Origin: Alphaproteobacteria bacterium
Lineage (GTDB): Bacteria > Pseudomonadota > Alphaproteobacteria > UBA8366
Assembly: GCA_965228695.1 (NCBI GenBank)
Contig: CBDDIB010000002.1
Coordinates: 1,369,089 to 1,433,088, forward strand
DNA length: 64,000 nt
Direction: 5' to 3'
Shown here: positions 2,575 through 43,878 of the stretch, in pieces
Position numbering within the stretch: position 1 is the first letter of the stretch
Layout of the letters: each line of letters opens with the position of its first letter
The notes under the pieces: generated by a model
Seen by the model: only the letters and a program-made list of their open reading frames with translations
Told to the model about the DNA's origin: nothing
The model's database searches: none
Translations under genes and position numbers: made by a program

Positions 2575-3276
2575 ATGAATTTGGAAAACCGTCAAATTGT
2601 CGTCACGGGCGGAACCGGCGGGCTTGGGCGCGCTGTCGTTGGCCGCCTGCTCGACGCGGGCGCAGCTCTCCATCTGCCGGTGGAGCCGGGCGTGGAACTC
2701 GATACCTTTCCGCACGCGGAAAACGCCAAGGTTTCGGCCACGGCGGGTGTCGATCTGACGGATCCCGCGGCGGTCGAGGACTTCTACGCGGCCCTGCCGG
2801 CGCTTTGGGCATCGGTCCATCTCGCCGGGGGCTTCGCCATGGCGCCGCTCGCCGAAACCGATTCCGATGGGTTCCAACATATGATGGACCTCAACTTGCG
2901 CACCTGCTTTCTCTGCTGCCGCGCGGCCGTCGCGAAAATCGCGGCGGGCGGCGCCGGGGGGCGCATCGTCAACGTGGCGGCGCGGCCCGGTCTCGAACCG
3001 CGCAGCGGCGCCGGGATGGCGGCCTACGCCGCGAGCAAGGCTGGCGTGGCCGCGCTCACCGAAGCACTGGGCGAGGAACTGGCCGAACAGGGCATCTGGG
3101 TCAACGCCGTGGCACCCTCGATCATCGACACCCCGGCCAACCGCGACGCCATGCCCGACGCGGACCACGAGACATGGCCGAAACCCGAAGAAATCGCCGA
3201 GACCATCGCTTTCCTCGCCTCGCCCGACAACCGGGTCACGCGCGGAAGCGTCATTCCGGTCTACGGCCGGTTTTAG
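2575..3276 (+). CDS. Short-chain dehydrogenase/reductase (SDR)
   Basis: Starts at internal ATG 2575 (MNLENRQIVVTGGTGGLGRAV, a TGxxxGxG Rossmann motif). Catalytic YxxxK is present (AAYAASKAG). 233 aa. Confidence 0.85.
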   Translation: MNLENRQIVVTGGTGGLGRAVVGRLLDAGAALHLPVEPGVELDTFPHAENAKVSATAGVDLTDPAAVEDFYAALPALWASVHLAGGFAMAPLAETDSDGFQHMMDLNLRTCFLCCRAAVAKIAAGGAGGRIVNVAARPGLEPRSGAGMAAYAASKAGVAALTEALGEELAEQGIWVNAVAPSIIDTPANRDAMPDADHETWPKPEEIAETIAFLASPDNRVTRGSVIPVYGRF

Positions 3277-3292
3277 CCGCTCTTGGACAGCG

Positions 3293-4393
3293 TTAGGTTT
3301 GCCCGACAGGGCCGGGGAAGACCGGCGGCATGTCCTCGTCGGGCGGGGTCAAATCCGCACGTATTCGTGGCAGGCATTCCGGATGCTGCCGCTGTAAGAA
3401 GGTAATTAGACCCTCGCGGAGATCGCAGCGCAGGTCCCAAGCGTCAGGTGAATTACGCGCACTGACGAGGGCCCGCAGTTCGACCGTACGATCGGTTGTG
3501 TTCGTGACCTGCAATCCACAGACTTTCCCGTCCCATTTCGGATGATCTTTCGCAAGTCGTTCGAGTTCCTCACGCATCTTGCCGACCGGGACGGTGTAGT
3601 CCGCATGCAGGTAGATGGTTCCCAGGATGTCGGCCGTCTTTCGCGTCCAGTTTTGGAATGGCTTTTCGATAAAATTGTTTAAAGGGACGATTAGACGCCG
3701 CTGATCCCAGATTCGGACCACCACGTAGGTCATCGTGATTTCTTCTATCCAACCCCATTCTCCTTCGACGATAACCACGTCATCGACACGAATGGGCTGG
3801 CTCAAGGCAATCTGCACGCCGGCAATCAGATTCGCGATCGTGGGGCGGGCGGCGAGACCGATAACAATGCCGGCAACGCCTGCGGAAGCGAACAGGCTAA
3901 GCCCGAGGTGACGAATCTCGGGAAAAGTCATGAGGATCAGTGCAATGGTCACGATGACGATAACTGCCGCCGCGATCCGGTTGAAAACCATTACACGCGT
4001 GCGGACCTCGCGCTCCGCCAAGTTATCCGCGTGATCAATCCGAAAACGGGCAATAACAATCTCCCCGAGAGCGCGCAATAGACCGAGAACACCCCAACCC
4101 GCGGCGGAAATAAGCACGATGATCATGATCTGTTGAATTACCGGCAATACGACATCCGGCAGCGTCACGAACTGCAGTGTCAATAAAACCGCCGCCGCCG
4201 GAAGGAAAAGCCCGGCCGGCCGGTGAAGATTGGTGATTACCGCATCGTCAACAGGCGTCGAGGTGCGCCGCGACAGCCGCGTGGCCAATGCCCTAATCAC
4301 GCGATGTATCACGTAGCCGGCCAAAGCGGCACTGCATAAGATCAGTGTGCCGACCAACCACGGACGGACGCCGTCAAAATCTTCGAATGTCAT
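3293..4393 (-). CDS. Mechanosensitive ion channel (MscS family)
   Basis: 366 aa with several N-terminal hydrophobic helices, followed by the MscS beta-domain signature NLIAGVQIALSQPIRVDDVVIVEGEWGWIEEITMTYVVVRIWDQRRLIVPLNNF. Confidence 0.85.
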   Translation of the reverse strand: MTFEDFDGVRPWLVGTLILCSAALAGYVIHRVIRALATRLSRRTSTPVDDAVITNLHRPAGLFLPAAAVLLTLQFVTLPDVVLPVIQQIMIIVLISAAGWGVLGLLRALGEIVIARFRIDHADNLAEREVRTRVMVFNRIAAAVIVIVTIALILMTFPEIRHLGLSLFASAGVAGIVIGLAARPTIANLIAGVQIALSQPIRVDDVVIVEGEWGWIEEITMTYVVVRIWDQRRLIVPLNNFIEKPFQNWTRKTADILGTIYLHADYTVPVGKMREELERLAKDHPKWDGKVCGLQVTNTTDRTVELRALVSARNSPDAWDLRCDLREGLITFLQRQHPECLPRIRADLTPPDEDMPPVFPGPVGQT

Positions 4394-7654: not shown

Positions 7655-10309
7655 ATGAAGCCGACCGCTGGAGTTCTTGCAAAACCCTATCAGACAATCC
7701 ACGAGCACATCCGGTACTGGGCCCATTACGACCCGGACTCTCCGGTATTCGTGGGGGAGGGCATGCCGCCGCTTTCCTATCGCGGCCTGGTAGAGACCAT
7801 CGATACGGTCGGTGTCACACTCAACGAGAGTGGCTTTGGGCGCGGTGACAGAATCGCCGTCGTGCACCAGGATGGGCGCCGCATGGCGGCGGCCCTCGTC
7901 GCGATCGAGAGTAACGCGACCGTCGTCCCCATGAACCCCGACGGCATTCTCGGTGAATTCGCCCTTCAACTGCACGATATGCGGGTCGATGCGGTCGCGA
8001 TCGCTGCGGACATGGACACGCCGGCCCGCGCCGCCGCGGCGGAGCTCGGGCTGCCGCGGTTCGACATTCGGTCGGACGGCCATGGTGCGATCCACCTCGC
8101 GCCGCCCACCGAAGGCCGCGAGACTCCCTGCGAGAAACCGGGTCCGGCGGAACCCGACGACGTCGCGGTGCTGCTCGCCACATCCGGCACGACCTCGCAC
8201 AGCAAGATCGTGCCGCTCCGCCAGCGCGTCTTGGCGATTCGGTGCGCCCGCTCGTCGCGGCTCCTCGGACTCTCGCCCGACGACCGCTGCCTGAACCTGT
8301 TGCGGCTTTTTCACAGCGCGGGTCTCGCAACCTCGTTGACCGGCGCGCTCGTTTCGGGGGGCAGCATCGCCTTTCTGACGGATACGAGTGTTACCGGCAT
8401 TTTCGACACGCTGGAGAGCGAACAGGCCACATGGGTGGGCGGCGCCTACGCGCATTACCACGCCATCCATCCGCATCTGGCGGCGCATCGCGAGACCATC
8501 GAGCGGGTCGCGGCGAGGCTCCGTTTCATGCGCGCGGGCACGGGTGCCCTTATTCCGGAAATCGCTGCGGACTTGGAACAGGTATTCGGCGTGCCGGTCT
8601 TGGCCTCCTTTGCGTCGACGGAAGCCGGCATCATCGCCGGCGACACGCCCGACAACACCCGCCCGGACCGGGCCAGCGTCGGACTCCCCTTTCCGGATGA
8701 AATCGCCATCGTCGATGACGAAGGCGAGGCGGTGCCGCGCGGCGAGAGTGGCGAGATCGTCGTCAAGGGTGTCGAGATATTCGACGGATACGAGAATGAC
8801 GATGCCGCCAACCGGCTCGCCTTCGACGGCGATTGGTTCCGAACCGGCGACATGGGCTATCTCGACGAAGACGGCTACCTGTTCCTTGCCGGCCGGATCA
8901 AGGAGTTGATCAACCGCGGCGGCGAAAAAGTGTCGCCGGGTGAAATCGACAATGTTCTGCTCGAGCATCCCGGCATCGCCGCCGCCGCCGCCTTCCCCGT
9001 CCCGCACCCGACGCTCGGCGAGGACGTTGCCGTCGCCGTCGTCCCGGCGGAAGGCGCTTCGATCGGCGAAGCCGCCGTGATGACCTATCTGCGCGACCGG
9101 TTGAGCGAGCGGAAGCTGCCCCGGCAATTGATCTTCACCGATGCAATCCCGAAGGGCCCTACCGGCAAGTTCCAGCGCCACAAGCTTGCGGATATATTCT
9201 GCGCCCCCGACGGCGCGGACGACAGCGCGGACGACGGATCGGGCGACGACCGGCCCGCGACGCCCTTGGAGGCGCAGCTCCAGGGACTGTGGGCCGCCTC
9301 TCTCGGTCACGACCATGTCGGCTTGCACGACGACTATTTCCAACTCGGCGGCGATTCGCTGCAGGCGGTCGAACTGTTCCTCGACATCGAGAAGACGCTC
9401 GGCCGGCCGTTGCCGCGCTCCATCCTGTTCGAGGCCGCGACGGTCGCCGAGATGGCCCAACGGATCGGCTCGACCGCCACCGCGCATTGCGTTGTGCCGA
9501 TCCAGCCGAACGGATCCCGCCCACCCCTGTTCTGCGTCCACGACGTCAACGGCCATGTCCTGAACTTTCGCGCATTGGCCGGCCGTTTGGGGCAGGGGCA
9601 GCCGGTCTACGGTGTCCAATCCGTGGGTTTGGACGGCAGCGAAGCGCCGCTCACCCGGATCGAGGACATGGCCACCCGTTATGTCGCCGAAATCCGCGCC
9701 GTGCAGCCGATCGGTCCCTACTATCTCTGCGGCTACTCGATGGGCGGCTGGATCGCCTATGAGTTGGCCCAACAGCTCATGGCCGCGAGACAGCGTGTCG
9801 CCTTCCTTGGATTGTTCGACACGCCGTCCCGGCAAGGACCGCGCCGCGCAACACTTCGGCAATGGTTCGGCCATCACGTCTCGGCGATGGCGGCAATGAA
9901 GGCATCGGACATCACGCCGTATCTGGGTCAGCGGGCGCGGAACCTCGCGGAGTTGAGCCGAACCGCCGTACGCTCCCGGTTGTTCGATGCCGCGCACGCC
10001 GTCGGCGCGGCGCCGGGCGCGGGCTCTCCGGCCCGCATCGCCGACGCCAACGGCCATGCGATACGGCACTACGAAATGCGTCCCTATGCGGGCGACGCCG
10101 TGCTGTTCAAGGCGACGCCGTATGCGTGGACGCACCGCAAGGCGCACGACGGGTGGCGCGACCTGATCCGTGGGCATTTTGAGACATTGCCGATCCCCGG
10201 CACCCACGGCGATCTCCTGGAGGAGCCGCATGTGCGGAAGCTGGCGGCCACGCTCTCAACTTGCCTCGCCGCGCGGCAATCCGACCGAAAACGCGCCAGC
10301 GCGGCTTAA
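7655..10309 (+). CDS. NRPS-like tridomain enzyme: adenylation (acyl-AMP ligase) - carrier protein - thioesterase (A-T-TE)
   Basis: 884 aa, with GGGGAGGA before the ATG.
- AMP-binding cores: LLATSGTTSHSKIV, FRTGDMGYLDEDGYLFLAGRIKELINRGGEKVSPGEID, PKGPTGKFQRHKL.
- Carrier motif: YFQLGGDSLQAVEL (Ser codon 9355-9357).
- Alpha/beta-hydrolase TE: PLFCVHDVNGHVLNF...YYLCGYSMGGWIAYE (GxSxG).
- No condensation domain. Confidence 0.85.
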   Translation: MKPTAGVLAKPYQTIHEHIRYWAHYDPDSPVFVGEGMPPLSYRGLVETIDTVGVTLNESGFGRGDRIAVVHQDGRRMAAALVAIESNATVVPMNPDGILGEFALQLHDMRVDAVAIAADMDTPARAAAAELGLPRFDIRSDGHGAIHLAPPTEGRETPCEKPGPAEPDDVAVLLATSGTTSHSKIVPLRQRVLAIRCARSSRLLGLSPDDRCLNLLRLFHSAGLATSLTGALVSGGSIAFLTDTSVTGIFDTLESEQATWVGGAYAHYHAIHPHLAAHRETIERVAARLRFMRAGTGALIPEIAADLEQVFGVPVLASFASTEAGIIAGDTPDNTRPDRASVGLPFPDEIAIVDDEGEAVPRGESGEIVVKGVEIFDGYENDDAANRLAFDGDWFRTGDMGYLDEDGYLFLAGRIKELINRGGEKVSPGEIDNVLLEHPGIAAAAAFPVPHPTLGEDVAVAVVPAEGASIGEAAVMTYLRDRLSERKLPRQLIFTDAIPKGPTGKFQRHKLADIFCAPDGADDSADDGSGDDRPATPLEAQLQGLWAASLGHDHVGLHDDYFQLGGDSLQAVELFLDIEKTLGRPLPRSILFEAATVAEMAQRIGSTATAHCVVPIQPNGSRPPLFCVHDVNGHVLNFRALAGRLGQGQPVYGVQSVGLDGSEAPLTRIEDMATRYVAEIRAVQPIGPYYLCGYSMGGWIAYELAQQLMAARQRVAFLGLFDTPSRQGPRRATLRQWFGHHVSAMAAMKASDITPYLGQRARNLAELSRTAVRSRLFDAAHAVGAAPGAGSPARIADANGHAIRHYEMRPYAGDAVLFKATPYAWTHRKAHDGWRDLIRGHFETLPIPGTHGDLLEEPHVRKLAATLSTCLAARQSDRKRASAA

Positions 10310-10461: not shown

Positions 10462-10641
10462 ATGTTTGGCATCTGGATCGTTATTCTCTTCGGCATCATT
10501 CCGGCCGCCGCCGGCGTCGGGTTGAGCTACGCGTTTTCCAAGGAAGAAACGCCGTCTCCCAAACGGCTGATTATCGGCGGCGCGATCGGCGCGGTGGTCG
10601 GACTCGCGCTCGGCATCGTGCTGGTTCAATTCACGCCCTGA
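10462..10641 (+). CDS. Small (59 aa) two-helix membrane protein, below the ORF-track length cutoff
   Basis: My hand translation gives MFGIWIVILFGIIPAAAGVGLSYAFSKEETPSPKRLIIGGAIGAVVGLALGIVLVQFTP*. It has two hydrophobic segments and G/C-rich third codon positions. The competing antisense ORF 10417..10665 is Arg/Asp/Gly-rich junk. The RBS is weak. Confidence 0.35.
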   Translation: MFGIWIVILFGIIPAAAGVGLSYAFSKEETPSPKRLIIGGAIGAVVGLALGIVLVQFTP

Positions 10642-10755
10642 CGGCCGCCCGGGCGCTGTACCCACCGTTTCGCCACGCCCTGATTTGTGCCGCCGTTCGC
10701 CGCGATGCTACCAATGCATCAACGGCTTTTTCATGCCCAACAGGAGAGCGAACGC

Positions 10756-11817
10756 ATGTCCACGGTGGAAATCCTCGCCATTCAGCCGGTGTCCGACGCC
10801 GAGCGCAGCCGTATTGAAGCGGTCGACAGCTCGATCCATCTGACTGATGCGGGCGGTTGGTTCGACGGCGAAATCCGCGAGGGCTGGCCCGAGTTCACGA
10901 CGCGGCGCTACCTCGCGCCCGACGCCAACGGCCAGGGCACGCGGGAAGAGCGCGACGCCCTGTTGGCCAACGCGGAGATCATCCTCGGCGGGTTTCCCTA
11001 TCCGCTGGAGTTGCGCGGCCGTGCGCCGAACCTGAAATGGTTCCACCAGCGCCCCGCCGGGGCGAGCAATTTGCTGCGCGGCGACCTTTGGGGCAGCGAT
11101 GTCACGGTTACCACGTCGCGCGGATTCGGCAACACGCTGCCGATCGCGGAATACGTGCTCGCCAGCATCCTTCACTTCGCCAAGGGGCTGCATCGCGTCG
11201 AGGTCGACCGGTCCTCCGGACTGCTAGACCACCGGCCCTACAAGGCGCTGTTGATCGAAGGGAAGACGGTTTGCGTGATCGGGGCGGGCGGTATCGGCTG
11301 CGACGTGGCCAAGGTGTGTTCGGGCGTCGGGATGCGGGTGGTCGGGACCCGGCGGCGGCCGCTGGCCGACGGCGAAGCGCTGCCGGACGGTTTCACCTCG
11401 TTGCACCCGCCGGAGGATCTGCATCGCCTGCTGGGCGAAAGCGACTTTGTCGCGGTGTGCTGCCAGTGGACGCCCGAGACCACGGACCTGATCGGCACGG
11501 AGGCCTTCGCGGCGATGAAGCCCGGCGCGATCCTGGTGAATGTGGCGCGCGGCGAGATCGTCAATGAGGACGCCCTTGTTACCGCCTTGGCCGAGGATCG
11601 CATTCGCGGCGCCGCGCTCGACGTCTATGTGGGCGAGTTCGATGCGGCGCCGGATGAACGGTTGTGGTCCGATCCGCGCGTGATGATCACGCCGCACACG
11701 TCCGGCGGGTCCGACGAAAGCCGCCATCGCGCGATCGACGTCTTCTGCGACAACCTGGACGCTTACCTTAAAGGCAAGCCGTTGATGAACGTCATCGATT
11801 GGGATTTGGGATACTGA
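10756..11817 (+). CDS. D-isomer-specific 2-hydroxyacid dehydrogenase family protein
   Basis: Start at ATG 10756 (AGGAGA 10743-10748). NAD-binding GKTVCVIGAGGIGCDVAK. Family motifs VNVARGEIVNEDAL and ITPHTSG (catalytic His). Confidence 0.85.
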   Translation: MSTVEILAIQPVSDAERSRIEAVDSSIHLTDAGGWFDGEIREGWPEFTTRRYLAPDANGQGTREERDALLANAEIILGGFPYPLELRGRAPNLKWFHQRPAGASNLLRGDLWGSDVTVTTSRGFGNTLPIAEYVLASILHFAKGLHRVEVDRSSGLLDHRPYKALLIEGKTVCVIGAGGIGCDVAKVCSGVGMRVVGTRRRPLADGEALPDGFTSLHPPEDLHRLLGESDFVAVCCQWTPETTDLIGTEAFAAMKPGAILVNVARGEIVNEDALVTALAEDRIRGAALDVYVGEFDAAPDERLWSDPRVMITPHTSGGSDESRHRAIDVFCDNLDAYLKGKPLMNVIDWDLGY

Positions 11818-11910
11818 TGCAGCCGGCGTACGTAGTGCATTACTAATTGCCGGCGAAATGCGCGATGATAAAGACACGTCACAACGAATAACGATAGGGA
11901 GAGAGTCGCC

Positions 11911-12828
11911 ATGGATGGGGGTTTCGTTCGGGATAAGGTCATTCTGGTCACCGGTGCCGGCCGCGGGATCGGAGCGGAAATCGCCAAGCTGGCCGCGTCC
12001 GAAGGGGCGAAGGTCGTCGTCAACGATCTCGGCAGCACGGTCGACGGCGACGGCGCCGATGCGACGCCGGCGCAGCAGGTCGTCGAAGAGATTACGTCCA
12101 ACGGCGGCGAGGCCGTGGTGAACGGCGGCAGCATCGCCGATTGGGACGACGCGCAGGCCATGGTGGCGCAGGCGGTCGACACCTTCGGCCGGATCGACGG
12201 CGTCATCAATGTCGCGGGGATTCTTCGGGACCGTATTTTTCACAAGATGTCGGCCGAGGAGTGGAGTGCCGTGATCGGCGTCCATCTCACTGGGTATTTC
12301 AACGTCGCTCGTGCCGCCGCCGAGCATTTCCGGAAACAGTCGTCCGGCGCGATGGTGCATTTCACGTCGAATTCCGGATTGATCGGAAATATCGGGCAGG
12401 CCAACTACGCGGCGGCGAAGATGGGTACCGTGGGCCTGTCGAAATCGATCGCGCTGGACATGGCGCGCTACCGGGTGCGGTCGAACATCGTATCGCCGTC
12501 CGCCTTCACGCGGATGATCGAGACGATCCCGACCAACGATCCGAACAAGGCGTCGCATGTGGAACGGCAGAAACGCATGCTGCCGGAAAAGATCGCGCCG
12601 CTTTGCGTCTATCTGATGTCCGATGTGGCGGAGGAAATCTCCGGACAGATCTTCTACGTCCGCGCCAACGAGATCATGCTGATGAGCCAGATGCGGCCGA
12701 TGCGCTCGGTCCATCGCGACGGCGGCTGGAGCTGCCAGACCTTGCACGAGCACGGCATTCCGGCGCTCAAGGCGAGCTTCTACGAACTGGAGCGGTCGCG
12801 TGACGTCTTTACCTGGGATCCGGTCTAG
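11911..12828 (+). CDS. SDR family oxidoreductase (3-hydroxyacyl-CoA dehydrogenase-like)
   Basis: GGGAGAG RBS. VILVTGAGRGIGAEIAKLAASEGAKVVVNDLG, NVAGILRD, and YAAAKMG (YxxxK). 305 aa. Confidence 0.85.
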   Translation: MDGGFVRDKVILVTGAGRGIGAEIAKLAASEGAKVVVNDLGSTVDGDGADATPAQQVVEEITSNGGEAVVNGGSIADWDDAQAMVAQAVDTFGRIDGVINVAGILRDRIFHKMSAEEWSAVIGVHLTGYFNVARAAAEHFRKQSSGAMVHFTSNSGLIGNIGQANYAAAKMGTVGLSKSIALDMARYRVRSNIVSPSAFTRMIETIPTNDPNKASHVERQKRMLPEKIAPLCVYLMSDVAEEISGQIFYVRANEIMLMSQMRPMRSVHRDGGWSCQTLHEHGIPALKASFYELERSRDVFTWDPV

Positions 12829-12857
12829 CGGCGGCGCCGGCGGACAGAAGGGTTCAC

Positions 12858-13709
12858 ATGGCGATAGAAGTACGGAAACTCGGCGAGCCGCTCCTGGCCG
12901 AGCTGGTAGGCTTGGACGTAACGAATCCCGCCGATCCGGACGTCTGGGCCGAGGTCGAACAAGCCTTTCTCGATCACAACGTTTTGGTGTTCCGCGGCCG
13001 GATGATGACGGCGGCGGAGATGGTGCAATTCGCCGGGCAGTTCGGGCCGCTCGAACCGCATATCACCAAGAAGTACAACCACCCGGATTTCGAAGAGCTG
13101 ATCGTGATGAGCAATGTGGACGCCGCGGGCAAGATCGATGCGCTCGGCGCGAAACGCGGTACGCGCTGGCACACGGACATGTGCTATCGCGAGGTGCCGT
13201 CGAAAGGCACCATGCTGCACACACTGGAAATCCCAGACGAGGGCGGCGATACCCTGTTCGCGAATATGTATCGGGCGCTGGAGGAAATGCCGGCCGCGCT
13301 CAAGGCTCGGATCGAGGGACGGCATGCCACCTTTCGGTACGGCGGGCGCAAAGCTGTCGGGCGGGCGCGGTTGGAGACGGAAGACCGGGAAGCCGAGTTG
13401 GTCGCGCATCCGATCATGCGGCCGCATCCGGAAACCGGCCGGCTGTCGGTATACGTCAATCCCGCGCATACGGTCGGGATCGTCGGCATGGACGACGATG
13501 CGGCGCAGGATCTCTTGCAGGATATCTACGCCTGGTGCAGCCGCCCCGACTTTCAGGCACGGCACCAATGGCGGTTGGGCGATACGGTCATCTGGGACAA
13601 CCGGTGCACGTGGCATAAGGGCACCGGGGAGAACCCCTTGCGTCAGGCGCGGCGGTTTCTGCGCGCCACCATTGCCGACGGCACCGCGACCGTGTCGGAC
13701 GTAGCCTAG
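12858..13709 (+). CDS. TauD/TfdA family Fe(II)/2-oxoglutarate dioxygenase
   Basis: 283 aa. WHTDMCYREVPSKGTMLHTLEIPDEGGDTLFANMY carries the HxD facial triad. C-terminal WDNRCTWHKG...R is typical of the family. Confidence 0.85.
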   Translation: MAIEVRKLGEPLLAELVGLDVTNPADPDVWAEVEQAFLDHNVLVFRGRMMTAAEMVQFAGQFGPLEPHITKKYNHPDFEELIVMSNVDAAGKIDALGAKRGTRWHTDMCYREVPSKGTMLHTLEIPDEGGDTLFANMYRALEEMPAALKARIEGRHATFRYGGRKAVGRARLETEDREAELVAHPIMRPHPETGRLSVYVNPAHTVGIVGMDDDAAQDLLQDIYAWCSRPDFQARHQWRLGDTVIWDNRCTWHKGTGENPLRQARRFLRATIADGTATVSDVA

Positions 13710-16711: not shown

Positions 16712-16830
16712 CGAGGTCGAGACTGATCGAGCCGCGGCAGCGGCCGGACCGGTTTCATGGTATGTTGTGAATAACGGATAAAGTATTGCATCGCCGTCAC
16801 GGGCGATGCGTCGAGAGAGGAGACCAAAGC

Positions 16831-18561
16831 ATGAATTCATTGGAAGTTTTCGATCCATCGGGCGCGACGGAGATCACGCGGTTGCACGCGACCCGGCTCG
16901 GCTCGCTGGAAGGCAAGACGGTCGCCATGCTGTCCGACGATATGTGGCAGGCGCATCGCATGATGCCGTTGCTGCGGGAAATGCTGGAAGAGCGTTTCGA
17001 CGACATCACGATCATCCCGGAAACCGAATTTCCGATGGGGAACACCGCGATCGATCGCGACGAGACCGCCGACATGTTCGTCGAACGCGGGGTCGACGCG
17101 GTCATTGTCGGAAACGCCTCCTGAGGCGCCTGCGCAACAGCATGCGGCCGTGCTGCCGCTAGAATCGAAAGCAGGGGCATCCCCACAGTACTACTCACCC
17201 GCGAGGATTTCGTCGGCGTTGTCCGCAACGCGCTCGCCGGTCTCGGATTCGATCAGGACGCGCCGATGGTGACCTTCCCGATCGACCCCTTTCTGGTCGG
17301 CAGTGATCTGACGCCGATCCGGGAGAATTTCGACGGATTTCTCGACGGACTGATGAAATGGGAAGCGCGCGCCAAGGAAACCGGTGTGCAGGACCCGCCG
17401 CGCATGCAGATCGAGGCGAACGGCTTCGAGGCGGCGCTCGATAAGATGAACCGCCAATTCCTCATGAACACATGGGGGGACGGTCTTCCCTTGACCGCGC
17501 CGACCGACGACCGCATCGACTGGATGCTCAAGGGAACCGATCTGCCGCGGGATCATGTGATCGGCAAGGTCATGCCGCGGGGCGGCATCGCGACCGTCGA
17601 GACCATTGCGGTATCGCTCGCCATGGCGGGCGGGCGGCCCGAATACCTGCCGGTCATGCTCGCGGCGGTCGAGGCGATCCTCGATCCCGGCATGGAGCAT
17701 GACAAGTTCCAGGCGACCTCGGGCAGTACTTTTCCGGTCGTCATCGTCAACGGCCCGATCGCCCAGCAAATACGCCTGAACTCGGGATTCGGGCTGCTCG
17801 GTCCGGACCCGCAGCATCCGGCCGGCGCCAGCATTGGCCGTGCATTGCGGTTGATATTGCAAAATGTGGGCGGTGCATTGCCGGGTGTCGGCACCATGGC
17901 GATGTTCGGCGGCATGCGGTACACGAACGCCGTATTCGCCGAGGATGAGGATGGCTTGCCCGAGGGTTGGTCGCCGGTCTGCACGGACCATCTCGGCCTG
18001 CCCGCGGGCAGCAATGCGGTCACTGTCTATGTGGCGACCGGCGCGTCGAACATCATGCGCCGTGGCGTCGGCAAGGAAGAACCGGACGAGGAAGCCGAGC
18101 AAAGCCTGCACCGTGTCGGTCAGTATTTGCGCAGTCCCAGCCCGCATTACACGCATGGCTGGGCGAAGGGATCGCCCGGTGCGTTGCTGATGTCGCGCGT
18201 CGTTGCGAAGCAGTTGTCCGGTCTCGGCTGGGATAAGGCCAAGATCAAGCAGTTCCTGTGGGGACGGTCCAGCACGCCGGCGGCGGAAATTCGCGAGAAC
18301 GGCATGAAGCAGTGGATCGAGGCCGCCGCCGATCCTGAAACGGTGGCGTCGTCCGAGCGGGACCCCTGGCCGATTTCCCGCACGCCGGAACAGATCATCC
18401 TCTGCGTTGCGGGCGGGCATCATCCGACGCATAATTTCTGGATGCAGGGAAACGCGCCCAAGGTCGCCGGCGGGGGAATCAAGCTGCCCGGCGGTTTTGA
18501 CGCGCTGCTTGCCGAAGCGGATGAGGATCTCGGATCGGGCGGCGAGTACTGCATGATCTAG
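16831..18561 (+). CDS. Candidate selenoprotein: UGSC-like N-terminal domain (S-U-G-A-C, UGA at 17122-17124) fused in frame to an uncharacterised ~400-aa domain
   Basis: - Track ORFs 16786..17124 and 17266..18561 share one frame.
- Codons 17125-17265 contain no stop and read GACATACGRAAARIESRGIPTVLLTREDFVGVVRNALAGLGFDQDAP.
- SD GAGGAG (16816-16821) precedes ATG 16831.
- Read-through gives 576 codons.
- If the UGA terminates instead, this is two genes (16831..17124 and 17266..18561). Confidence 0.6.
17129..17175 (+). promoter_or_regulatory. Candidate SECIS-like stem-loop downstream of UGA 17122
   Basis: Outer pairing: cctgc (17129-17133) with gcagg (17171-17175). Inner hairpin: cagca (17138-17142) with tgctg (17151-17155) and loop ugcggccg, starting 14 nt after the UGA. 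An alternative inner stem is gcggc (17144-17148) with gccgc (17155-17159). Paired by eye, not thermodynamically folded. Confidence 0.3.
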
Positions 18562-18591: not shown

Positions 18592-18626
18592 AAAAGCCGG
18601 CGGAAAAAGGTTCCGCCGGCTTTTTT
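18592..18626. terminator. Bidirectional intrinsic terminator between the convergent selenoprotein candidate and MCP genes
   Basis: A 12-bp stem: aaaagccggcgg (18592-18603) pairs with ccgccggctttt (18613-18624). The T-run continues to 18626, and the A-run on the 5' side serves the opposite strand. Confidence 0.7.
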
Positions 18627-18649: not shown

Positions 18650-20722
18650 TTACGCCGCGCGCATTTGCGTCAGGAACCCGTCGACCTGGGTCTGCAGGGT
18701 GTCGGCCTGCTCGGAGAGATCGTTCGCGGAGGACAGCACCTGCTGCGCCGCGGTGCCGGTCTCCGACGCTGCTTGGGTAACGGTGGAAATCGTACCGCTG
18801 ACGGTTTGCGTGCCGATTGCCGCCTGCTGCGTGTTCTCGGCGATCTCCTGCGTCGCGCTCCCTTGCTCGGAAATGGCCGTCGCAATGGTATCGGTGATGG
18901 TGTTGATCTCGCCGATGGTGCTGCCGATCCCCTCGATCGCCGACACCGCGTCCGAAGTTACCGCCTGCATCTCGGAGATCTGGGAGCTGATATCCTCCGT
19001 CGCCTTTGCCGTTTGCGTCGCCAGGTTCTTCACTTCGGACGCGACGACGGCAAAGCCTTTGCCGGCTTCACCGGCGCGGGCTGCTTCGATAGTAGCGTTC
19101 AGGGCCAGCAAGTTGGTCTGTTCCGCGATGTCGCTGATCAACTCGACGATCTCGCCGATCTTCTGCGCGGCGGACGCCAGGCTTTGCACCGTCTCGTTCG
19201 TGCGCTGCGCATCTTTGTTCGCCTTACCGGCGATTTCAGCCGATTGAGTGACCTGCCGATTGATCTCATTGACCGACGCCGATAGTTCCTCTGCGGCGGA
19301 TGCAACCGTCTGGACATTCGTGGACGCCTCCTCGGATGCCGCCGCCACCGTCGTCGTCTGCTGACTGGCATCGTCGGCCGTTTTAGACATCGATTGCGCC
19401 GTCGACGTCAATTGAGCCGAGGAAGAGGAAACGGTCTTGACAATCGCGCTCACGCGGCTTTCGAAATCGTCGGCCATCGCGTTCATCGCGGCTTTCTTTT
19501 CCGCCGCGACGCGCTCTTCTTGCGCGGCCTTCTCCGATTCCATCTTCTGCACTTCGATAGCGTTTTGCTTGAAGACCGCGATCGATTGAGCCATGCCGCC
19601 GATCTCGTCGCCGCGGTTCAGCCCCGGAATTTCGACCTCGAGATTGCCCTTCGCCAGGTGATCCATGACATCGACGCTATCGTTGATCGGGCCCGTGATG
19701 CCCCAGATGATGACGAGCGAGCCGATGACTGTAATCGAAAGCAGTGCGATGGTCGTGGTCAGGATGAGGAAAAACTGGCTCGACGACGCATCTTCGAGAT
19801 TTTTCAACCGTGTCGTGAAGTCCGACGCGAGGCGATCCTCCACTGATTTCATGAGGTTGATCTTCTCGGTGATCTTTTGAAACCAGATGCCCGCGTCGAC
19901 ATCGCCGGTACTTCCCGACGTAACGCTTTCGATGGCGATCTTCCGCATGCGATTGACGTCATCCACGGCCGCACCGCGGACGGTACTCTGATAGAAAGCC
20001 ACCTGATCGGGTGTCGCGTTCGATTTGAAGGCGTTGAAAAACACGTCCTGCATTGCGATGAGCTGAATGAATTTCTGGTGGACGGCCGGGGCGAAACGTT
20101 GCGCGCCGAAGCCCGCCGCACCCATGGCGCGCTCGATGCCGATCCGTTCCTTTGCCTCCAAGAACGCGGTGTACCCGACGACGGCATTCGCCACCTCGCC
20201 GGTTGTCGCATGTTTGCTCATGTTGTCGACGATTTTCAGCAGCTTCCCGATGGTTGGCGTGTAGTACTGCGCCATTTGCGCGACCGTGGCGGTTTGACCG
20301 GATACGCTGCTGCGCACCGGCGCGAGTTGCGTCAGCGCCGATGTCGCTTTTTGAATGATGGCGACGATGTCGCTGCCATAAGCTTCGGCATCGAATGATT
20401 TGAGCGCCGCCTTGAACTGCGTGTGACGGCTGTCCGTCTGCGCCTGCTGCTTCGGTAGTTCCGCCCGAAACTTGACGCCTTTGCTGGCGATGAACCCGGC
20501 CGACATGCCGCGTTCCTTCTGTAATTCGTGGACGAGAGCGCTAATCTTCGGCGCTACCACGCCAAGTTCGAGCAGCGCGTGCGTCTCTTTCTGTTCCTGC
20601 CATGTGCTGTAGGTCAGCATCGTGGAGAACAACAGAGCGCCGAGAAAGGGCAGCGCTAATAGTAAGTTGATTCGGCTAGAAATCTTCCAGCCGGATAGGA
20701 TGGATTTGGACCAGGCTTTCAT
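18650..20722 (-). CDS. Methyl-accepting chemotaxis protein with periplasmic NIT (nitrate/nitrite-sensing type) domain and HAMP
   Basis: Start at ATG 20722 (MKAWSKS..., GAGGGGA upstream). NIT signature [23 protein letters not shown] between two TM helices. MCP signalling hairpin [40 protein letters not shown]. Confidence 0.9.
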
Positions 20723-20879
20723 CGATTTGTCCCCTCGAAAACTTTCAAAATCAAACGTCGTCTGTCGCGTAAATTGCGCCGCGAAGAGTTCCGTTCCTAA
20801 AAATTGACCGCGCCGGCGACCGGCGATGCCTTCGGTCAATCGATTGTCTTGCTATAGCGGCATCCGACTGCCGCGTACC

Positions 20880-30095: not shown

Positions 30096-30956
30096 ATGAC
30101 GGTCTTAACGCAACCTCGGTTCGCTTTTCGCGCGGCAGCCGTACTCGTCCTGGTCGCCGGGCTCAGCGGTTTCTCGCTGGAATCCCTGTTTGCACCGAAG
30201 TCCGAGTTATGGCCGCGTTGGCAGGCGCACGATGCGGCCTCCACCCTGACGGTCGATCACGGCGCATGGGGCATGCTTCTGAAAGCCTATGTGAAGCCGG
30301 ATTCAAGCGGGCTGAACCGCTTCGACTATCAGCACGTTTCCTCGGCCGACCGCCAGGCTTTGCGTGGTTACATCGAGGGTCTGGGCAAGGTTGCCGTCAG
30401 CAAGCTCAACCGTTCTGAGCAGAACGCCTACTGGATCAATCTGTATAACGCGTTGACCATCGACGTGGTCCTGAAACATATGCCGGTGAAAAGTATCCGC
30501 GACATCGATATCTCGCCGGGGCTTTTCGCCAGTGGACCGTGGGACAAGAAATTGATCGCCGTCGAAGGGGTTGAGGTCAGTCTCAATGACATCGAGCACC
30601 GTATCCTGCGGCCGATTTGGCAGGATCCGCGCGTGCATTACGGCGTGAACTGCGCATCGGTCGGATGCCCGAACCTTCTCAGCACGGCCTATACCGGGGC
30701 CGCAATGGACAAAATGCTCGACGATGCCGCGCGGACGTATGTGAACTCGCCGCGCGGCGCCAGGATCGATGAGAACGGCCTGACCGTTTCCAGCATCTAT
30801 GTGTGGTTCAAGGACGATTTCGGCGGAACCGACCAGGGCGTGATCGATCATTTGAAGCGTTACGCCAAGCCGGATCTGCGCGCCGCGCTGGATGGCCGGT
30901 CGACCATCGACGCGCACGCCTATGACTGGGCGCTCAATTCCGGTTTGGGAAGCTAG
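30096..30956 (+). CDS. DUF547 domain-containing exported protein
   Basis: 286 aa with a signal peptide. DUF547 core YWINLYNALTIDVVL...SLNDIEHRILRPIWQDPRVHYGVNCASVGCPNL. Confidence 0.8.
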   Translation: MTVLTQPRFAFRAAAVLVLVAGLSGFSLESLFAPKSELWPRWQAHDAASTLTVDHGAWGMLLKAYVKPDSSGLNRFDYQHVSSADRQALRGYIEGLGKVAVSKLNRSEQNAYWINLYNALTIDVVLKHMPVKSIRDIDISPGLFASGPWDKKLIAVEGVEVSLNDIEHRILRPIWQDPRVHYGVNCASVGCPNLLSTAYTGAAMDKMLDDAARTYVNSPRGARIDENGLTVSSIYVWFKDDFGGTDQGVIDHLKRYAKPDLRAALDGRSTIDAHAYDWALNSGLGS

Positions 30957-31693
30957 GACCCTCGGGCCAGCCGGTTTTCGGCAACGTTGCCTGTATGGCG
31001 CCCGCGGCGCCGGCGTTGCGAATCGTACAGCCGGGCCAGGCGGTCCGGCGAAACGCCGAGATAGAACAGCAGATGAATCTTCACCCAGCCCCAAACGATC
31101 GCGGCCGGATGGCGGCCGGTGAAACGCCGTGACGAGGTGACCAGCGGTGGATTGGCGATACAGCAGGTCCGGCCCGCTTTTTCCATCCGGCGATTGAAGT
31201 CGTAATCCTCCATCAGGGCGATTGGCCGAATGCCGCCGAGCGCTTGGTAGGTTGTGCGCCGGACGAATACCGCCGAATCGCCGTAATAGACGCCATGTTC
31301 GCGGATCCAGCGGTAGAAACCGTCGAGCCAGCGGCTGAATCCGTCCCGGCCATCGAACAGCAGGCGAAAATTGCCCCCGATCGCCGCCGGGTTGTCGGAC
31401 AGAACGCGCTCGATCTGCCGCAAGCCGCCACTGGGATAGGTGGTATCGGCATGCAGGAACCACAGGACGTCGCCCGCCGCCGCCGCCGCCCCGGCGTGAA
31501 GTTGCTGGCCACGCCCGCGGGCGCACATGAGGACACGGGCGCCAGCAGTCTTGGCGACGGCGCGGGTATCGTCGCGGCTCCCGCCATCCACGACGATGAT
31601 CTCGATGTCCGCCGACTCGTCCCGCAGGCGCGTCAGCAGACCGGGAAGCCGATGCGCCTCGTTCAGCGCCGGGATGATTACCGAGATGGTCAT
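30953..31693 (-). CDS. Family-2 glycosyltransferase (resembles the TIGR04283-type GT, from memory)
   Basis: 246 aa. MTISVIIPALNEA...IEIIVVDGGSRDDT (GT-A DxD region), WFLHADT, and a C-terminus FNRRMEKAGRTCCIANPPLVTSSRRF. Confidence 0.75.
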   Translation of the reverse strand: MTISVIIPALNEAHRLPGLLTRLRDESADIEIIVVDGGSRDDTRAVAKTAGARVLMCARGRGQQLHAGAAAAAGDVLWFLHADTTYPSGGLRQIERVLSDNPAAIGGNFRLLFDGRDGFSRWLDGFYRWIREHGVYYGDSAVFVRRTTYQALGGIRPIALMEDYDFNRRMEKAGRTCCIANPPLVTSSRRFTGRHPAAIVWGWVKIHLLFYLGVSPDRLARLYDSQRRRRGRHTGNVAENRLARGS

Positions 31694-31732
31694 GGCGTGC
31701 TGCCTATCATATTCGCTGCCCTTGCCGCCGGG

Positions 31733-32524
31733 TCAGCAGCGGTCGAATTGCGCCGTTTCTTGGGGCTGTATCAACCCGATGTCAATCAGCGCCTCCCGTT
31801 GCCGACGCCAGCGGGTTTCGGCCCATCGACGTCCGACCGTCCGAAAGACGATCCCCGGCATGTCCGCCTGGATCGGCCCGGCGCAGTCGAACCAGAGCCG
31901 CCGCACCCATTGGTAGATCGCGGTCCGCTCCTCCAGCGCCAGCGCTTGGAGTTGTCGGCGCAGGAAGATCTTTCCGAAAGCGACATGCCGGCCCTCGTCC
32001 CGGGCGATCAACGCGTTCATCTGCTTGAACAACGGGCAGGGGAACCAATCACCGTAAAGCTGCTGCAATCGCAGGCCTTCGCCTTCCAGCACGATGTGAA
32101 AGGCGACGATGGCGCCGTGATACGAACCGCGCCATCCCAAGGCGCCCTCATAAGCCATGGCGACGCCGTCGCAGATCTCTTCGATGCCGCCGGCCCGCGC
32201 CAGATATCGTTCGTAGTAACCGGCATGCCGTTGTTCGTCGGCAACCTGCGTCTTCACGAAACGGATGGCGTTTTCGTCGTCGAGTTCGCGGAGAAGCCGT
32301 TCGCACATGGTGATCGTCGCAAGCTCGCCGTAATAGAGCTGGCTGATGGCGGTCCGCACATATTGCATCCGCAGCCACGCCGGTTTCTTGACGCCGGTAT
32401 CCCAATCGATGCCGTCGTCGGTGATCGCCGCGGCGCCCAATCCCTTGTCGGTCAGCCGATCAAGTTGCGCGGCATGGATAGCGGCGCCATGATCCATGGC
32501 GGTTAAGGCGGCGTTATTCCGCAT
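31733..32524 (-). CDS. Ferritin-like di-iron carboxylate protein (putative oxygenase)
   Basis: 263 aa. Two E...(D/E)ExRH half-sites: YYGELATITMCE...VADEQRHAGYY and IVLEGEGL...IARDEGRHVAFG. The start is uncertain; an alternative ATG lies at 32497. Confidence 0.6.
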   Translation of the reverse strand: MRNNAALTAMDHGAAIHAAQLDRLTDKGLGAAAITDDGIDWDTGVKKPAWLRMQYVRTAISQLYYGELATITMCERLLRELDDENAIRFVKTQVADEQRHAGYYERYLARAGGIEEICDGVAMAYEGALGWRGSYHGAIVAFHIVLEGEGLRLQQLYGDWFPCPLFKQMNALIARDEGRHVAFGKIFLRRQLQALALEERTAIYQWVRRLWFDCAGPIQADMPGIVFRTVGRRWAETRWRRQREALIDIGLIQPQETAQFDRC

Positions 32525-42099: not shown

Positions 42100-42223
42100 G
42101 GCGTTGCTGCGGGGTAGACGGGCACTATGAGCGAGGGAGATATGCGGCGCAAGCGGCGGCGTGCGGAAGCCCGTCTGCTGCGATATAAACAAAGCGGAGC
42201 ACAAGACTGGTGGGGAGCACCCG

Positions 42224-43468
42224 ATGAAGTTGACGGACTACGAGGAAAGCATCCGCGCAGGCAATCTAGGCGAGCCGCGCCGGCTGGCGCTGGAGCATCA
42301 AATCAAGGTCGGGCAGTTCTTCGACGCCGAGGATCTGGTGGCGATCAGCCAGGTTCACCTGATGGCGGATACGGAATCGCTGGGTGCGGCCGGCGTCGAG
42401 TTCCTGGAAAAGGTCGCAAGCTATCCCAAGGACGAACGGCGTACGGTGGTGCCGACGGTAACCGATCCGCGCGGTACCGATTTCAACGCCTACAAGCGGC
42501 TGAAGCAGCAGGAAGACTGGATCGACCTGGAGCGCCGTGCGGTCGATGCCTTTCAGTCGCTCGACGTGATGATGACCGATACCTGCATCAACTATCAGGT
42601 GATCATCCCGCCGGTGCAGGGCGAGCATGTGGCTTTCGGCGATACCGGGTCGAGCATCTACACCAACAGCGTGCTCGGCGCGCGGACCAATTTCGAGGGC
42701 GGGCCCTCGGCGCTGGCCGCCGCGCTGACCGGGCGGACGCCGCGCTACGGCTTCCATCTCGACGAACGCCGCCGCGGCACCGCGCTTTACGTGCTGGAGA
42801 CCCGGCCGCAGGATTGGGCGGACTGGGGCGCGGTCGGCGGCATCATCGGCCGGAATATGGGGTCCTATTGGGAAGTGCCGGTGATCGACGGCGTCGACGG
42901 GACGCCGACCTCGGACGAGATGAAACATCTGGGCGCGGCGATGGCGAGTTTCGGGTCGACGCCGTTGTTCCACATGATCGGCGTGACGCCGGAAGCGCCG
43001 TCGCTGGAAACGGTTTTCGATACCGCGCCGCCGGACCCGGTCCGCATCACCCGCGCCGACATCGACGCCTTTTATGATTCCTACGGCGTGTCGGACGACC
43101 GGCTCGACGTGGTGGTGTTCGCCGCGCCGCAATTGTCGCTGTTCGAGTTGCAGCGGCTTGGACATTTGCTCGACGGGCGGACGGTGAACGACGCAACCAC
43201 CCTGATTGCGGCGACCGCCCCGGAAATCAAGAAGGCCGCCGACCGCATGGGGATCACCGCGCAGATCGAAGGCGCCGGCGGTATCCTGCTCGAAGGGGTC
43301 TGCTTCTACCAGATGTACGCCCGCGAGGTCGGTGAGGCGAACGGCTGGAAGCGGCTGATGAGCAACTCGGCGAAAATCGTGAATATCCTCGGCGGTTACG
43401 GCTACGAGCCGGTCCTGTCCACCATGGAGCGGTGCGTCGATTCCGCCGTCGCCGGGAGGATCGTCTGA
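42224..43468 (+). CDS. Aconitase X catalytic (large) subunit, DUF521
   Basis: Start at ATG 42224 (GGGGAG upstream). About 414 aa of DUF521-type sequence (AGNLGEPRRLALEHQIKVGQFF...CINYQ...FGDTGSS...). Family call is from memory. Confidence 0.75.
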   Translation: MKLTDYEESIRAGNLGEPRRLALEHQIKVGQFFDAEDLVAISQVHLMADTESLGAAGVEFLEKVASYPKDERRTVVPTVTDPRGTDFNAYKRLKQQEDWIDLERRAVDAFQSLDVMMTDTCINYQVIIPPVQGEHVAFGDTGSSIYTNSVLGARTNFEGGPSALAAALTGRTPRYGFHLDERRRGTALYVLETRPQDWADWGAVGGIIGRNMGSYWEVPVIDGVDGTPTSDEMKHLGAAMASFGSTPLFHMIGVTPEAPSLETVFDTAPPDPVRITRADIDAFYDSYGVSDDRLDVVVFAAPQLSLFELQRLGHLLDGRTVNDATTLIAATAPEIKKAADRMGITAQIEGAGGILLEGVCFYQMYAREVGEANGWKRLMSNSAKIVNILGGYGYEPVLSTMERCVDSAVAGRIV

Positions 43469-43878
43469 TGGCCGACCGGATCATCCAAGGTCATGTCGGC
43501 ATCGGCGATACGGTGACCGGAACGGCGCTGGTCGCCGACGATAATTTCAGCGCCCGCTACGACCTCAACCGGATCGACGGCACCTTCTCGCGCGAGGCGC
43601 ACAAGCTGTACGGCGAGAGCTATCTCGGCAAGGTGCTGATCCTCAACATCGCGAAGGGCGGCGTGGCGACGGCCTGGATGCTGTACGAAATGGCGTCCCG
43701 CGACCGGGCGCCGCTGGCGCTGGTGCTGAACTACGCCAACCCGATCATGGCGCAAGGGGCCGCGCATGCGGACTTCCCGCTGCTCGACCGGTTCGATTGC
43801 GATATCACGGCCGCGGTGAAAACCGGCGACCGGGTCACGGTAAACCCGGCGGCCGGGCGGCTCATCGTCCACGAATGA
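43468..43878 (+). CDS. Aconitase X swivel (small) subunit, DUF126
   Basis: ATG 43468 overlaps the upstream TGA by 1 nt. 136 aa. GTALVADDNFSARYDL...GKVLILNIAKGGVATAWMLYEM is typical of DUF126. Confidence 0.75.
   Translation: MADRIIQGHVGIGDTVTGTALVADDNFSARYDLNRIDGTFSREAHKLYGESYLGKVLILNIAKGGVATAWMLYEMASRDRAPLALVLNYANPIMAQGAAHADFPLLDRFDCDITAAVKTGDRVTVNPAAGRLIVHE

Follow-up and report, generated by a model that had tools for sequence, protein, structure and literature searches.

An in-frame UGA between two annotated open reading frames of an alphaproteobacterium very probably encodes selenocysteine in a 576-residue UGSC fusion protein

Introduction

Does the UGA at positions 17122-17124 of a 64,000-nucleotide stretch of alphaproteobacterial DNA (contig CBDDIB010000002.1; the whole stretch is hereafter called the window) end one gene before another begins, or is it read as selenocysteine (Sec) within a single gene? 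In the public records, the products of the window at this place are two separate unnamed or hypothetical proteins of 97 and 431 amino acids (aa). We consider it highly probable that positions 16831-18561 are instead one gene, which encodes a 576-residue fusion of a Sec-containing UGSC domain with a second, larger domain, and for which a two-module reductase mechanism is proposed below.

UGSC-containing selenoproteins have been known since 2005-2008 from the work of Zhang and Gladyshev (PMC2398784, PMC1976440). They were among the most abundant selenoproteins in data from Global Ocean Sampling (GOS), in which 255 sequences had Sec and 21 had cysteine (Cys) (PMC2398784), and a "UGSC/Unknown_1 fusion" was described by the same authors in 2008 (PLoS Genet 4:e1000095, Fig. 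S1A; PMC2398784). The function of UGSC was still listed as unknown in reviews of 2022 and 2026 (2026: PMC13188914). Because both UGSC and the UGSC/Unknown_1 fusion had already been reported, we regard the gene in the window as a mis-annotated addition to a known selenoprotein family, and the UGSC fusion as such is probably not new.

Results

A single reading frame runs through both annotated ORFs

Translation of the forward strand from 16831 to 18561 gave 576 codons and a terminal TAG, and the sole internal stop was the TGA at 17122-17124. The two annotated open reading frames (ORFs), 16786..17124 and 17266..18561, lie in this common frame, and the 47 codons that link them (17125-17265) read GACATACGRAAARIESRGIPTVLLTREDFVGVVRNALAGLGFDQDAP and contain no stop. 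The first-pass annotation, made from the letters of the window, had claimed both the shared frame with its single TGA break and the stop-free linker; the translation confirmed the former, and the linker was identical to the sequence given there. Based on this frame and on the full-length Cys homologues described below, the proposed selenoprotein gene was placed at 16831..18561 (+). Its true start is ATG 16831, not TTG 16786. The homologues all start at the aligned M..LEVFDPSG, and a Shine-Dalgarno-like AGGAG could be read off the sequence at 16818..16822 (+), 8 nucleotides (nt) 5' of this ATG.

A TGA codon is the stop of 16 of the 46 other predicted genes of the window, and therefore the genetic code is not reassigned. 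The two stops that had been cited as examples of ordinary TGA usage, at 2486-2488 and 10639-10641, are indeed present.

Homologues carry UGA or Cys at the same column

As annotated, the UGA at 17122 ends a 97-aa protein and a separate 431-aa protein starts at ATG 17266. An ATG is present at 17266, and the public records all hold the two products separately. The homologues were examined with this reading in view. A search of 5.8 billion proteins yielded 2,526 relatives, of which the best 120 were inspected. Eighteen of these 120 were 573-577 aa long, matched Pfam UGSC and had Cys at the UGA column (GNAA-C-GACSTACG); full-length P0001, which is of this Cys type, was 72% identical to the window protein. 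These Cys homologues are single polypeptides that span both halves, which argues against two genes. The other 102 entries were 414-457 aa long and began shortly past the UGA position, with starts that differed between genomes (LTREDF, MTREDF, VTREDF, MGVV and MVTFP, at ATG, GTG or TTG codons). Such varied choices by the gene callers also speak against a separate downstream gene, and the shorter entries bear the signature of gene-caller truncations at a Sec codon. Furthermore, a Shine-Dalgarno signal is absent 5' of ATG 17266 whereas it is present 5' of ATG 16831, and the Pfam UGSC match of the window protein (residues 5-148) crosses the stop.

The codon at the homologous column was then read from the DNA. 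In species-representative genomes, TGA was found in 79 of 79 loci, with approximately 97 codons before it and approximately 478 after it; these loci belong to Alphaproteobacteria/Rhodospirillaceae, Entotheonella, Burkholderiales, Syntrophales, Methylomirabilota, Rokubacteria, Dormiibacterota and Lambdaproteobacteria. From metagenomes, a scan with the Cys-type proteins as seeds gave 80 further loci, of which 69 had TGA, 8 had TGC and 2 had TGT, with 1 unscored. With the window included, TGA occurred in 149 loci in total and a Cys codon in 10, and the stop was never TAA or TAG. No homologue was found that ends at the aligned position and is followed by an independently initiated gene. The proposed Sec98 codon, UGA at 17122..17124 (+), opens the motif U-G-A-C-A-T-A-C, which contains U98, C101 and C105. 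In all homologues scored, then, the column is UGA or Cys, and the alignments show a coding constraint that is uninterrupted across it: among 72 full-length genes that were aligned, in-frame stops outside the TGA column were absent.

The 47 codons from 17125 to 17265 (+), which lie between the UGA and the start that was wrongly annotated at ATG 17266, encode the latter half of the UGSC domain, and their entropies at codon positions 1, 2 and 3 were 0.48, 0.30 and 1.29 bits, positions 1 and 2 being tighter than in the rest of the gene. Judged by these alignments, the stretch is under the strongest protein-level constraint of the gene. From this codon-position pattern, 17125-17265 is therefore translated in this frame. 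Taken together with a stop fixed as TGA in 149 loci, these findings leave the two-gene reading with very little probability.

A pseudogene or an assembly error, in which a Cys-encoding gene has suffered a nonsense mutation or a miscall, was also considered, since TGA is one base from TGC or TGT. However, 148 independent loci, which come from many assemblies and phyla, have the same TGA; additional stops or frameshifts are absent; and the synonymous constraint 3' of the UGA (see below) is specific to TGA-bearing sequences. On this comparative evidence, an error or pseudogene is effectively refuted. As judged from the alignments, we regard the comparative evidence for recoding of the UGA as decisive.

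Two further features were observed within this family. In three Rhodospirillaceae loci from metagenome-assembled genomes, L034 (6001-9518), L035 (6001-9518) and L040 (6001-9480), the UGSC-fusion gene is present twice in tandem, each time with the in-frame TGA; the motif of the second copy is GNAA-U-GRCATACG. The Cys-type clade (alignment A6, compared with window residues 105, ~257 and ~320) has two additional invariant Cys, in EAC-AVALAMAGG and GFG-C-LGPDP, and frequently has Leu at the C105 position. In the Sec-type proteins, the positions of the extra Cys are occupied by Ile/Thr and by Leu, and the residue-105 position is Cys. As the cysteine sets thus differ between the Sec and Cys clades, the active-site cysteine inventory co-varies with Sec/Cys status.

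A conserved hairpin follows the UGA in Sec forms

A candidate apical hairpin of a selenocysteine insertion sequence (SECIS), GCGGC-CGUGCU-GCCGC, was located by an RNAalifold consensus at 17144..17159 (+), corresponding to nt +23 to +38 from the U of the UGA. The hairpin has 5 base pairs (bp) and begins 19 nt past the UGA. In the Sec forms, 99.4-99.7% of the hairpin cells were paired and all 5 pairs were kept in 121 of 123 distinct sequences; in the Cys forms, 58% of the cells were paired and all 5 pairs were kept in 1 of 10 sequences.

The same region was compared with a synonymous-site baseline, for which 149 conserved fourfold-degenerate codons gave a mean third-position entropy of 1.37 ± 0.29 bits. 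Past the UGA, the third-position entropy was 0.18 bits at codon +8 (Gly), 0.49 bits at codon +9 (Arg) and 0.22 bits at codon +11 (Ala). Among the Sec-type sequences (n=123 distinct), codon +7 was TGC in 123, codon +8 was GGC in 121 and codon +11 was GCC in 109, whereas in the Cys type (n=10) codons +7, +8 and +11 varied freely and codon +7 was usually Leu, not Cys. The near-fixed bases of the Sec type are the ones that make up the hairpin.

Several results weigh against a SECIS at this place. The hairpin is short, with 5 bp, and its only changes are from G-C to G-U wobble pairs, with no compensatory double substitutions. A single-sequence fold of 17110-17190 was not more stable than shuffled sequences (z = -0.16), and no SECIS or other RNA family of Rfam was matched, either in the whole window at gathering thresholds or in 17050-17300 at E values up to 10. 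Because the local fold was no more stable than that of shuffled sequence, the support for a SECIS comes entirely from comparison. We accordingly call the hairpin a candidate, since compensatory pairs are lacking, the local fold is unremarkable and there is no Rfam model; as a candidate SECIS, 17144-17159 is well supported by the alignments but not proven.

The minimum-free-energy structure of the single sequence was a 7-bp hairpin with the loop CGGC at nt +17 to +34. As a conserved element it was rejected: 85.7% of its cells were paired, two of its pairs were broken in 41 of 65 and 19 of 65 sequences, and it was no better than shuffles. In two deep-branching Sec-type loci, L038 (6304-6321) and L039 (4959-4976), the consensus hairpin is imperfect; 10 nt nearer the UGA there is a different hairpin, GCGACCG-CGUG-CGGUCGC, with 7 bp and no mismatch. 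These shifted hairpins suggest lineage-specific SECIS variants.

The candidate resembles the bacterial SECIS of the Escherichia coli fdhF type, as modelled in bSECISearch, in that a stem-loop with a GC-rich apical helix and G-U in the loop lies just 3' of the UGA within the coding sequence. Its loop begins 24 nt past the UGA, and the range for bacterial SECIS is 16-37 nt. Unlike the fdhF type, it consists of a conserved helix of only 5 bp, without a conserved bulged U or a lower stem.

The UGA most likely specifies selenocysteine

A recoded UGA need not specify Sec. It could be read as Cys by a tRNA-Sec-like tRNA with a SelB-type factor, or as Trp or Cys by near-cognate read-through. The site tolerates Cys, as 10 loci and 18 proteins of the database search show, and the Sec machinery of the source genome is so far only predicted. 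SelB-dependent systems that convert UGA to Cys have been reported from some uncultured bacteria. However, a TGC codon would give Cys without any recoding apparatus, and the conserved SECIS-like element implies SelB-type delivery, of which the usual cargo is Sec. In addition, the protein belongs to an established family of selenoproteins, and in the GOS data the Sec forms of this family far outnumbered its Cys forms (255 vs 21; PMC2398784). We therefore consider it improbable that the recoded UGA specifies anything but Sec.

Within the 64-kb window, the expected machinery was not found, which weighs against Sec and is consistent with two separate genes. Pfam scans, run on 40 other genes of the window, gave no selA, selB or selD, and ARAGORN detected no tRNA-Sec, and no tRNA at all, in the window; nor did it detect tRNA-Sec in 60 related loci. 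From the comparison of homologues as a whole, the reading of the window UGA as Sec is strongly supported.

The N-terminal domain is a divergent UGSC domain

The N-terminal UGSC domain extends over 16831..17355 (+), approximately residues 1-175, and is an alpha/beta domain in which a beta-strand leads into a helix that has the Sec at its start. The match to Pfam UGSC (PF24696), which spans the Sec position, scored 73.3 bits against a cutoff of 25, and the homologues scored 51-76 bits. With the NCBIfam equivalog model NF041046, the window protein obtained 43.2 bits and did not reach the cutoff of 125; P0227, a protein of another fusion subfamily, obtained 119.8 bits. Because the NF041046 cutoff is unmet, the annotation pipeline PGAP would not name the window protein "UGSC family (seleno)protein". 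The first-pass annotation had named the UGSC family, and this holds at the level of Pfam but not at that of NCBIfam. By its profile scores, the window protein is a divergent relative of UGSC and not an NF041046 equivalog.

The structure was modelled for the natural Cys form P0001, not for the window protein itself. The AlphaFold2-type (AF2) model had a predicted local distance difference test score (pLDDT) of 87.9 and a predicted template modelling score (pTM) of 0.89. In this model, a strand at residues 90-96 is followed by a helix at 99-113, at the start of which the Sec/Cys position is situated; the earlier claim that the UGA follows a beta-strand in a U-x-x-C motif agrees with this. A Foldseek search of the PDB with the model gave weak matches of the N-terminal domain to flavodoxin-like folds. 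Weak matches to GrdB, PrdB, GrdF, GrdH and PF09338 were also centred on the Sec position; the GrdB/PrdB models (TIGR01917, TIGR04483, NF040794/5) scored 11.9-15.8 bits against cutoffs of 300-800, over approximately 45 residues around the Sec. These weak matches, together with the model, suggest that the N-terminal domain may be a flavodoxin-like alpha/beta domain distantly related to the Sec region of GrdB/PrdB.

The C-terminal domain belongs to a large unnamed family

The C-terminal, catalytic-looking domain covers 17398..18558 (+) and is approximately 390 aa long. It had earlier been called unassignable to any family. This must be revised: among 1.84 billion cluster representatives, a profile search detected 4,412 relatives at E ≤ 1e-3, 2,828 of them at E ≤ 1e-10, which places the domain in a very large uncharacterised family. 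Its motifs are WGDGLPxxxPT, AGGRPEYLP, VNGP, GRALRL..QN.GGALPG, AEDE and VAGGxHPTH. No model of Pfam or NCBIfam matched the domain, and a profile search of the PDB gave no sequence match. Many of the relatives are standalone proteins of approximately 350 aa; one of these, P0220, is 32% identical to the domain (E 1e-49). Two others, P0168 (717 aa) and P0258 (741 aa), consist of a tandem pair of C-terminal domains without the UGSC part.

An AF2-type model of the standalone P0220 had a pLDDT of 87.0. In Foldseek against the PDB, its best matches were the class I fumarate hydratase alpha 7xky_A (E 7.8e-5, probability 0.97) and 5hy4, one of the Toblerone-fold cyclic amide hydrolases (E ~5e-3). The domain is nevertheless unlike both of them, with TM-scores of 0.2-0.3 and root-mean-square deviations above 12 Å, and the fusion model had no such match. 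The invariant residues of the domain are D217, R269, E271, R337, R340, R363, E371-E373, R411 and H531, and there is no Cys among the invariant columns of the family alignment (A7). A reading as an Fe-S hydro-lyase was set aside, as there is no family-wide conserved Cys and no Cys triad for an Fe-S cluster. Because the PDB matches are weak and no Cys is conserved throughout the family, we claim neither a fold nor a function nor a cofactor for the domain.

Within the fusion proteins, Cys574 is near-invariant and lies three residues from the C-terminus (...GEYCMI; 18547-18555). The tail that carries it was disordered in the P0001 model (pLDDT <50), and as modelled it recalls mobile redox tails.

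UGSC genes accompany standalone C-domain genes

The genes upstream of six standalone C-domain genes were sampled. A UGSC gene lies directly upstream in four of the six, and three of these four UGSC genes are split by UGA. The P0220 gene starts 2 nt past a standalone Cys-type UGSC gene; ahead of P0317, P0381 and P0342, the UGSC gene is split by UGA into two ORFs. In L166, the upstream UGSC gene reads ...LLAIAD-U-GSCTSW. An additional UGSC/C-domain gene pair is present in L162, and a thioredoxin-reductase-like gene flanks one such pair. Candidatus Entotheonella DD2 (L010, 1460-7578) has four genes of the family in the space of 8 kb. They are a paralogue of the C-domain at 1460-2410, a Sec-type UGSC gene that stands alone (2407-~2980, motif GSGD-U-GACTSW), another paralogue of the C-domain at 2983-4050 and, from 6001 onward, the fusion gene.

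Other fusions were also found. P0227 joins a canonical UGSC domain to the C-terminal domain, and in P0200 and P0424 the C-terminal domain is fused at its C-terminus to the catalytic domain of ferredoxin:thioredoxin reductase (FeThRed_B, PF02943). P0200 and P0424 also gave a weak match to the NCBIfam "FtrB family double-selenoprotein".

Because standalone C-domain genes are often directly downstream of UGSC genes, UGSC looks like the redox module of the C-domain enzyme. We put forward, as a tentative generalisation that may well prove too broad, that UGSC proteins may serve as the selenol/thiol module dedicated to one very large and wholly uncharacterised enzyme family, rather than as free-standing "Trx-like" (thioredoxin-like) redox proteins. 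This family is recognisable by the motifs DGLPxxPPT ... AGxxPEY ... GRAxRL..N.GGxxPG and, when clustered at 50% identity, comprises at least 4,400 clusters.

Surroundings of the gene and other features of the window

The gene ends with TAG 18559-18561, and a hairpin with a U-tract follows at 18596..18626, which was assigned as an intrinsic terminator (-28.6 kcal/mol, z = -5.1, with 0 of 200 shuffles folding as well). It is a perfect 10-bp GC-rich hairpin between an A-run and a T-run. A consensus terminator scan of the window did not list it. The hairpin is probably a bidirectional terminator, common to the selenoprotein gene and the convergent gene of a NIT-sensor chemoreceptor at 18650-20839 (-).

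A scan of the window for further genes with in-frame UGA, based on GC content at third codon positions, gave none that was convincing, and the thresholds used also missed the present gene. At 30953-32524 (-), a glycosyltransferase gene and an unassigned 263-aa ORF share a frame, with a TGA at 31733 and approximately 39 nt between them; these look like ordinary neighbouring genes.

Elsewhere in the window, 7655-10309 encodes a stand-alone protein of the nonribosomal peptide synthetase type with adenylation, carrier and thioesterase domains, and it adjoins genes for a D-2-hydroxyacid dehydrogenase, a short-chain dehydrogenase/reductase (SDR) and a TauD-family dioxygenase (10687-13709). An aconitase X (AcnX) large subunit gene with an overlapping small ORF lies at 42161-43878 next to PALP-family and creatininase-family genes, and is unrelated to the selenoprotein gene.

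Discussion

A mechanism can be proposed for the fused protein. The UGA would be decoded as Sec by SelB and tRNA-Sec, which would be recruited by the GC-rich hairpin at 17144-17159. The C-terminal domain would bind and transform a small, probably anionic, substrate, and the U98/C101 pair of the UGSC module would give the nucleophile or two reducing equivalents, ending as a selenenylsulfide. The selenenylsulfide would be re-reduced by a cellular dithiol system, and Cys574 in the flexible tail possibly relays electrons in this step. Overall, the protein would act as a fused two-module seleno/thiol-dependent reductase, by analogy with the logic of the selenoprotein-B of glycine and proline reductase.

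The following points weigh against this catalytic proposal, whose whole basis is gene fusion, adjacency and analogy. The P0001 fusion model gave nothing below 1e-3 in Foldseek against the PDB, and the best PDB matches of the C-terminal domain are weak (fumarate hydratase alpha with E 7.8e-5 has a TM-score of ~0.3). Of the six standalone C-domain genes that were sampled, two lack a UGSC gene next to them, and the FeThRed_B fusion is rare, occurring in 2 of the 120 best matches. The neighbourhoods of the fusion gene are not conserved, and no operon partner emerged in 80 loci. The best neighbour cluster, a Bug/TctC-like binding protein, was found in 23 of the 80; the varied neighbours, which include NMT1/TauA-like, Bug-like and SBP_bac_3 binding proteins, family III CoA-transferases, SDRs and TauD, do not pinpoint a substrate.

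What is added here to the known family is a subfamily-specific candidate SECIS, the union of two annotated ORFs into a single gene and the connection of UGSC to a partner family that is very large and unnamed. All public records that were found divide this gene, and likewise considerably more than a hundred of its relatives, into "hypothetical proteins" of approximately 97 aa and approximately 431-457 aa. The NCBI UGSC model would miss this subfamily, and a dedicated model would correct many genomes. Furthermore, the pattern of fusion and adjacency names the likely working partner of UGSC, so that the two-module enzyme becomes testable. If the proposal is true, a fused or two-component Sec-dependent reductase would be widespread in aerobic soil, freshwater and marine bacteria.

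Compared with the UGSC family (PF24696), the window protein likewise has a beta-strand ahead of its Sec and a U-G-[AS]-C motif with ...GIPTV further on, and its Sec forms likewise far outnumber its Cys forms. The family motif U-G-S-C is UGAC in the window clade and U-G-S-C in Betaproteobacterial orthologues, and the place of U is taken by Cys in 10 loci and in 18 proteins. Standalone UGSC proteins have approximately 150-180 aa (NF041046 has 147 positions, and the standalone examples among the present loci have approximately 180 aa), whereas the window protein has 576 residues and is fused to the ~390-aa domain. A "Trx-like fold" was suggested for UGSC in 2008; the AF2 model of P0001 is instead flavodoxin/Rossmann-like, as far as the weak Foldseek matches indicate. 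As for the "UGSC/Unknown_1 fusion", its Unknown_1 part may correspond to the C-terminal domain of the window protein; the 2008 paper (PMC2398784) describes no adjacent-gene arrangement, partner-family size or SECIS.

The other known systems for comparison are GrdB, GrdF and GrdH of glycine, sarcosine and betaine reductase, and PrdB. They differ from the window protein in several respects. The C-terminal domain has no similarity to GrdE or PrdA, the PF09338 matches fall in the UGSC part only, and the window protein has no pyruvoyl-type proprotein signature. In addition, the hosts of the window type are aerobic or soil/marine Proteobacteria, not Stickland fermenters. The likeness lies in the Sec itself, which stands in a UxxC-type motif of a beta-strand/helix unit, and in the division of labour, since the Sec subunit of GrdB/PrdB operates with a separate substrate-binding partner protein. 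If the proposed mechanism is true, the UGSC fusion would thus be a functional analogue of the B components of glycine and proline reductase outside anaerobic fermenters.

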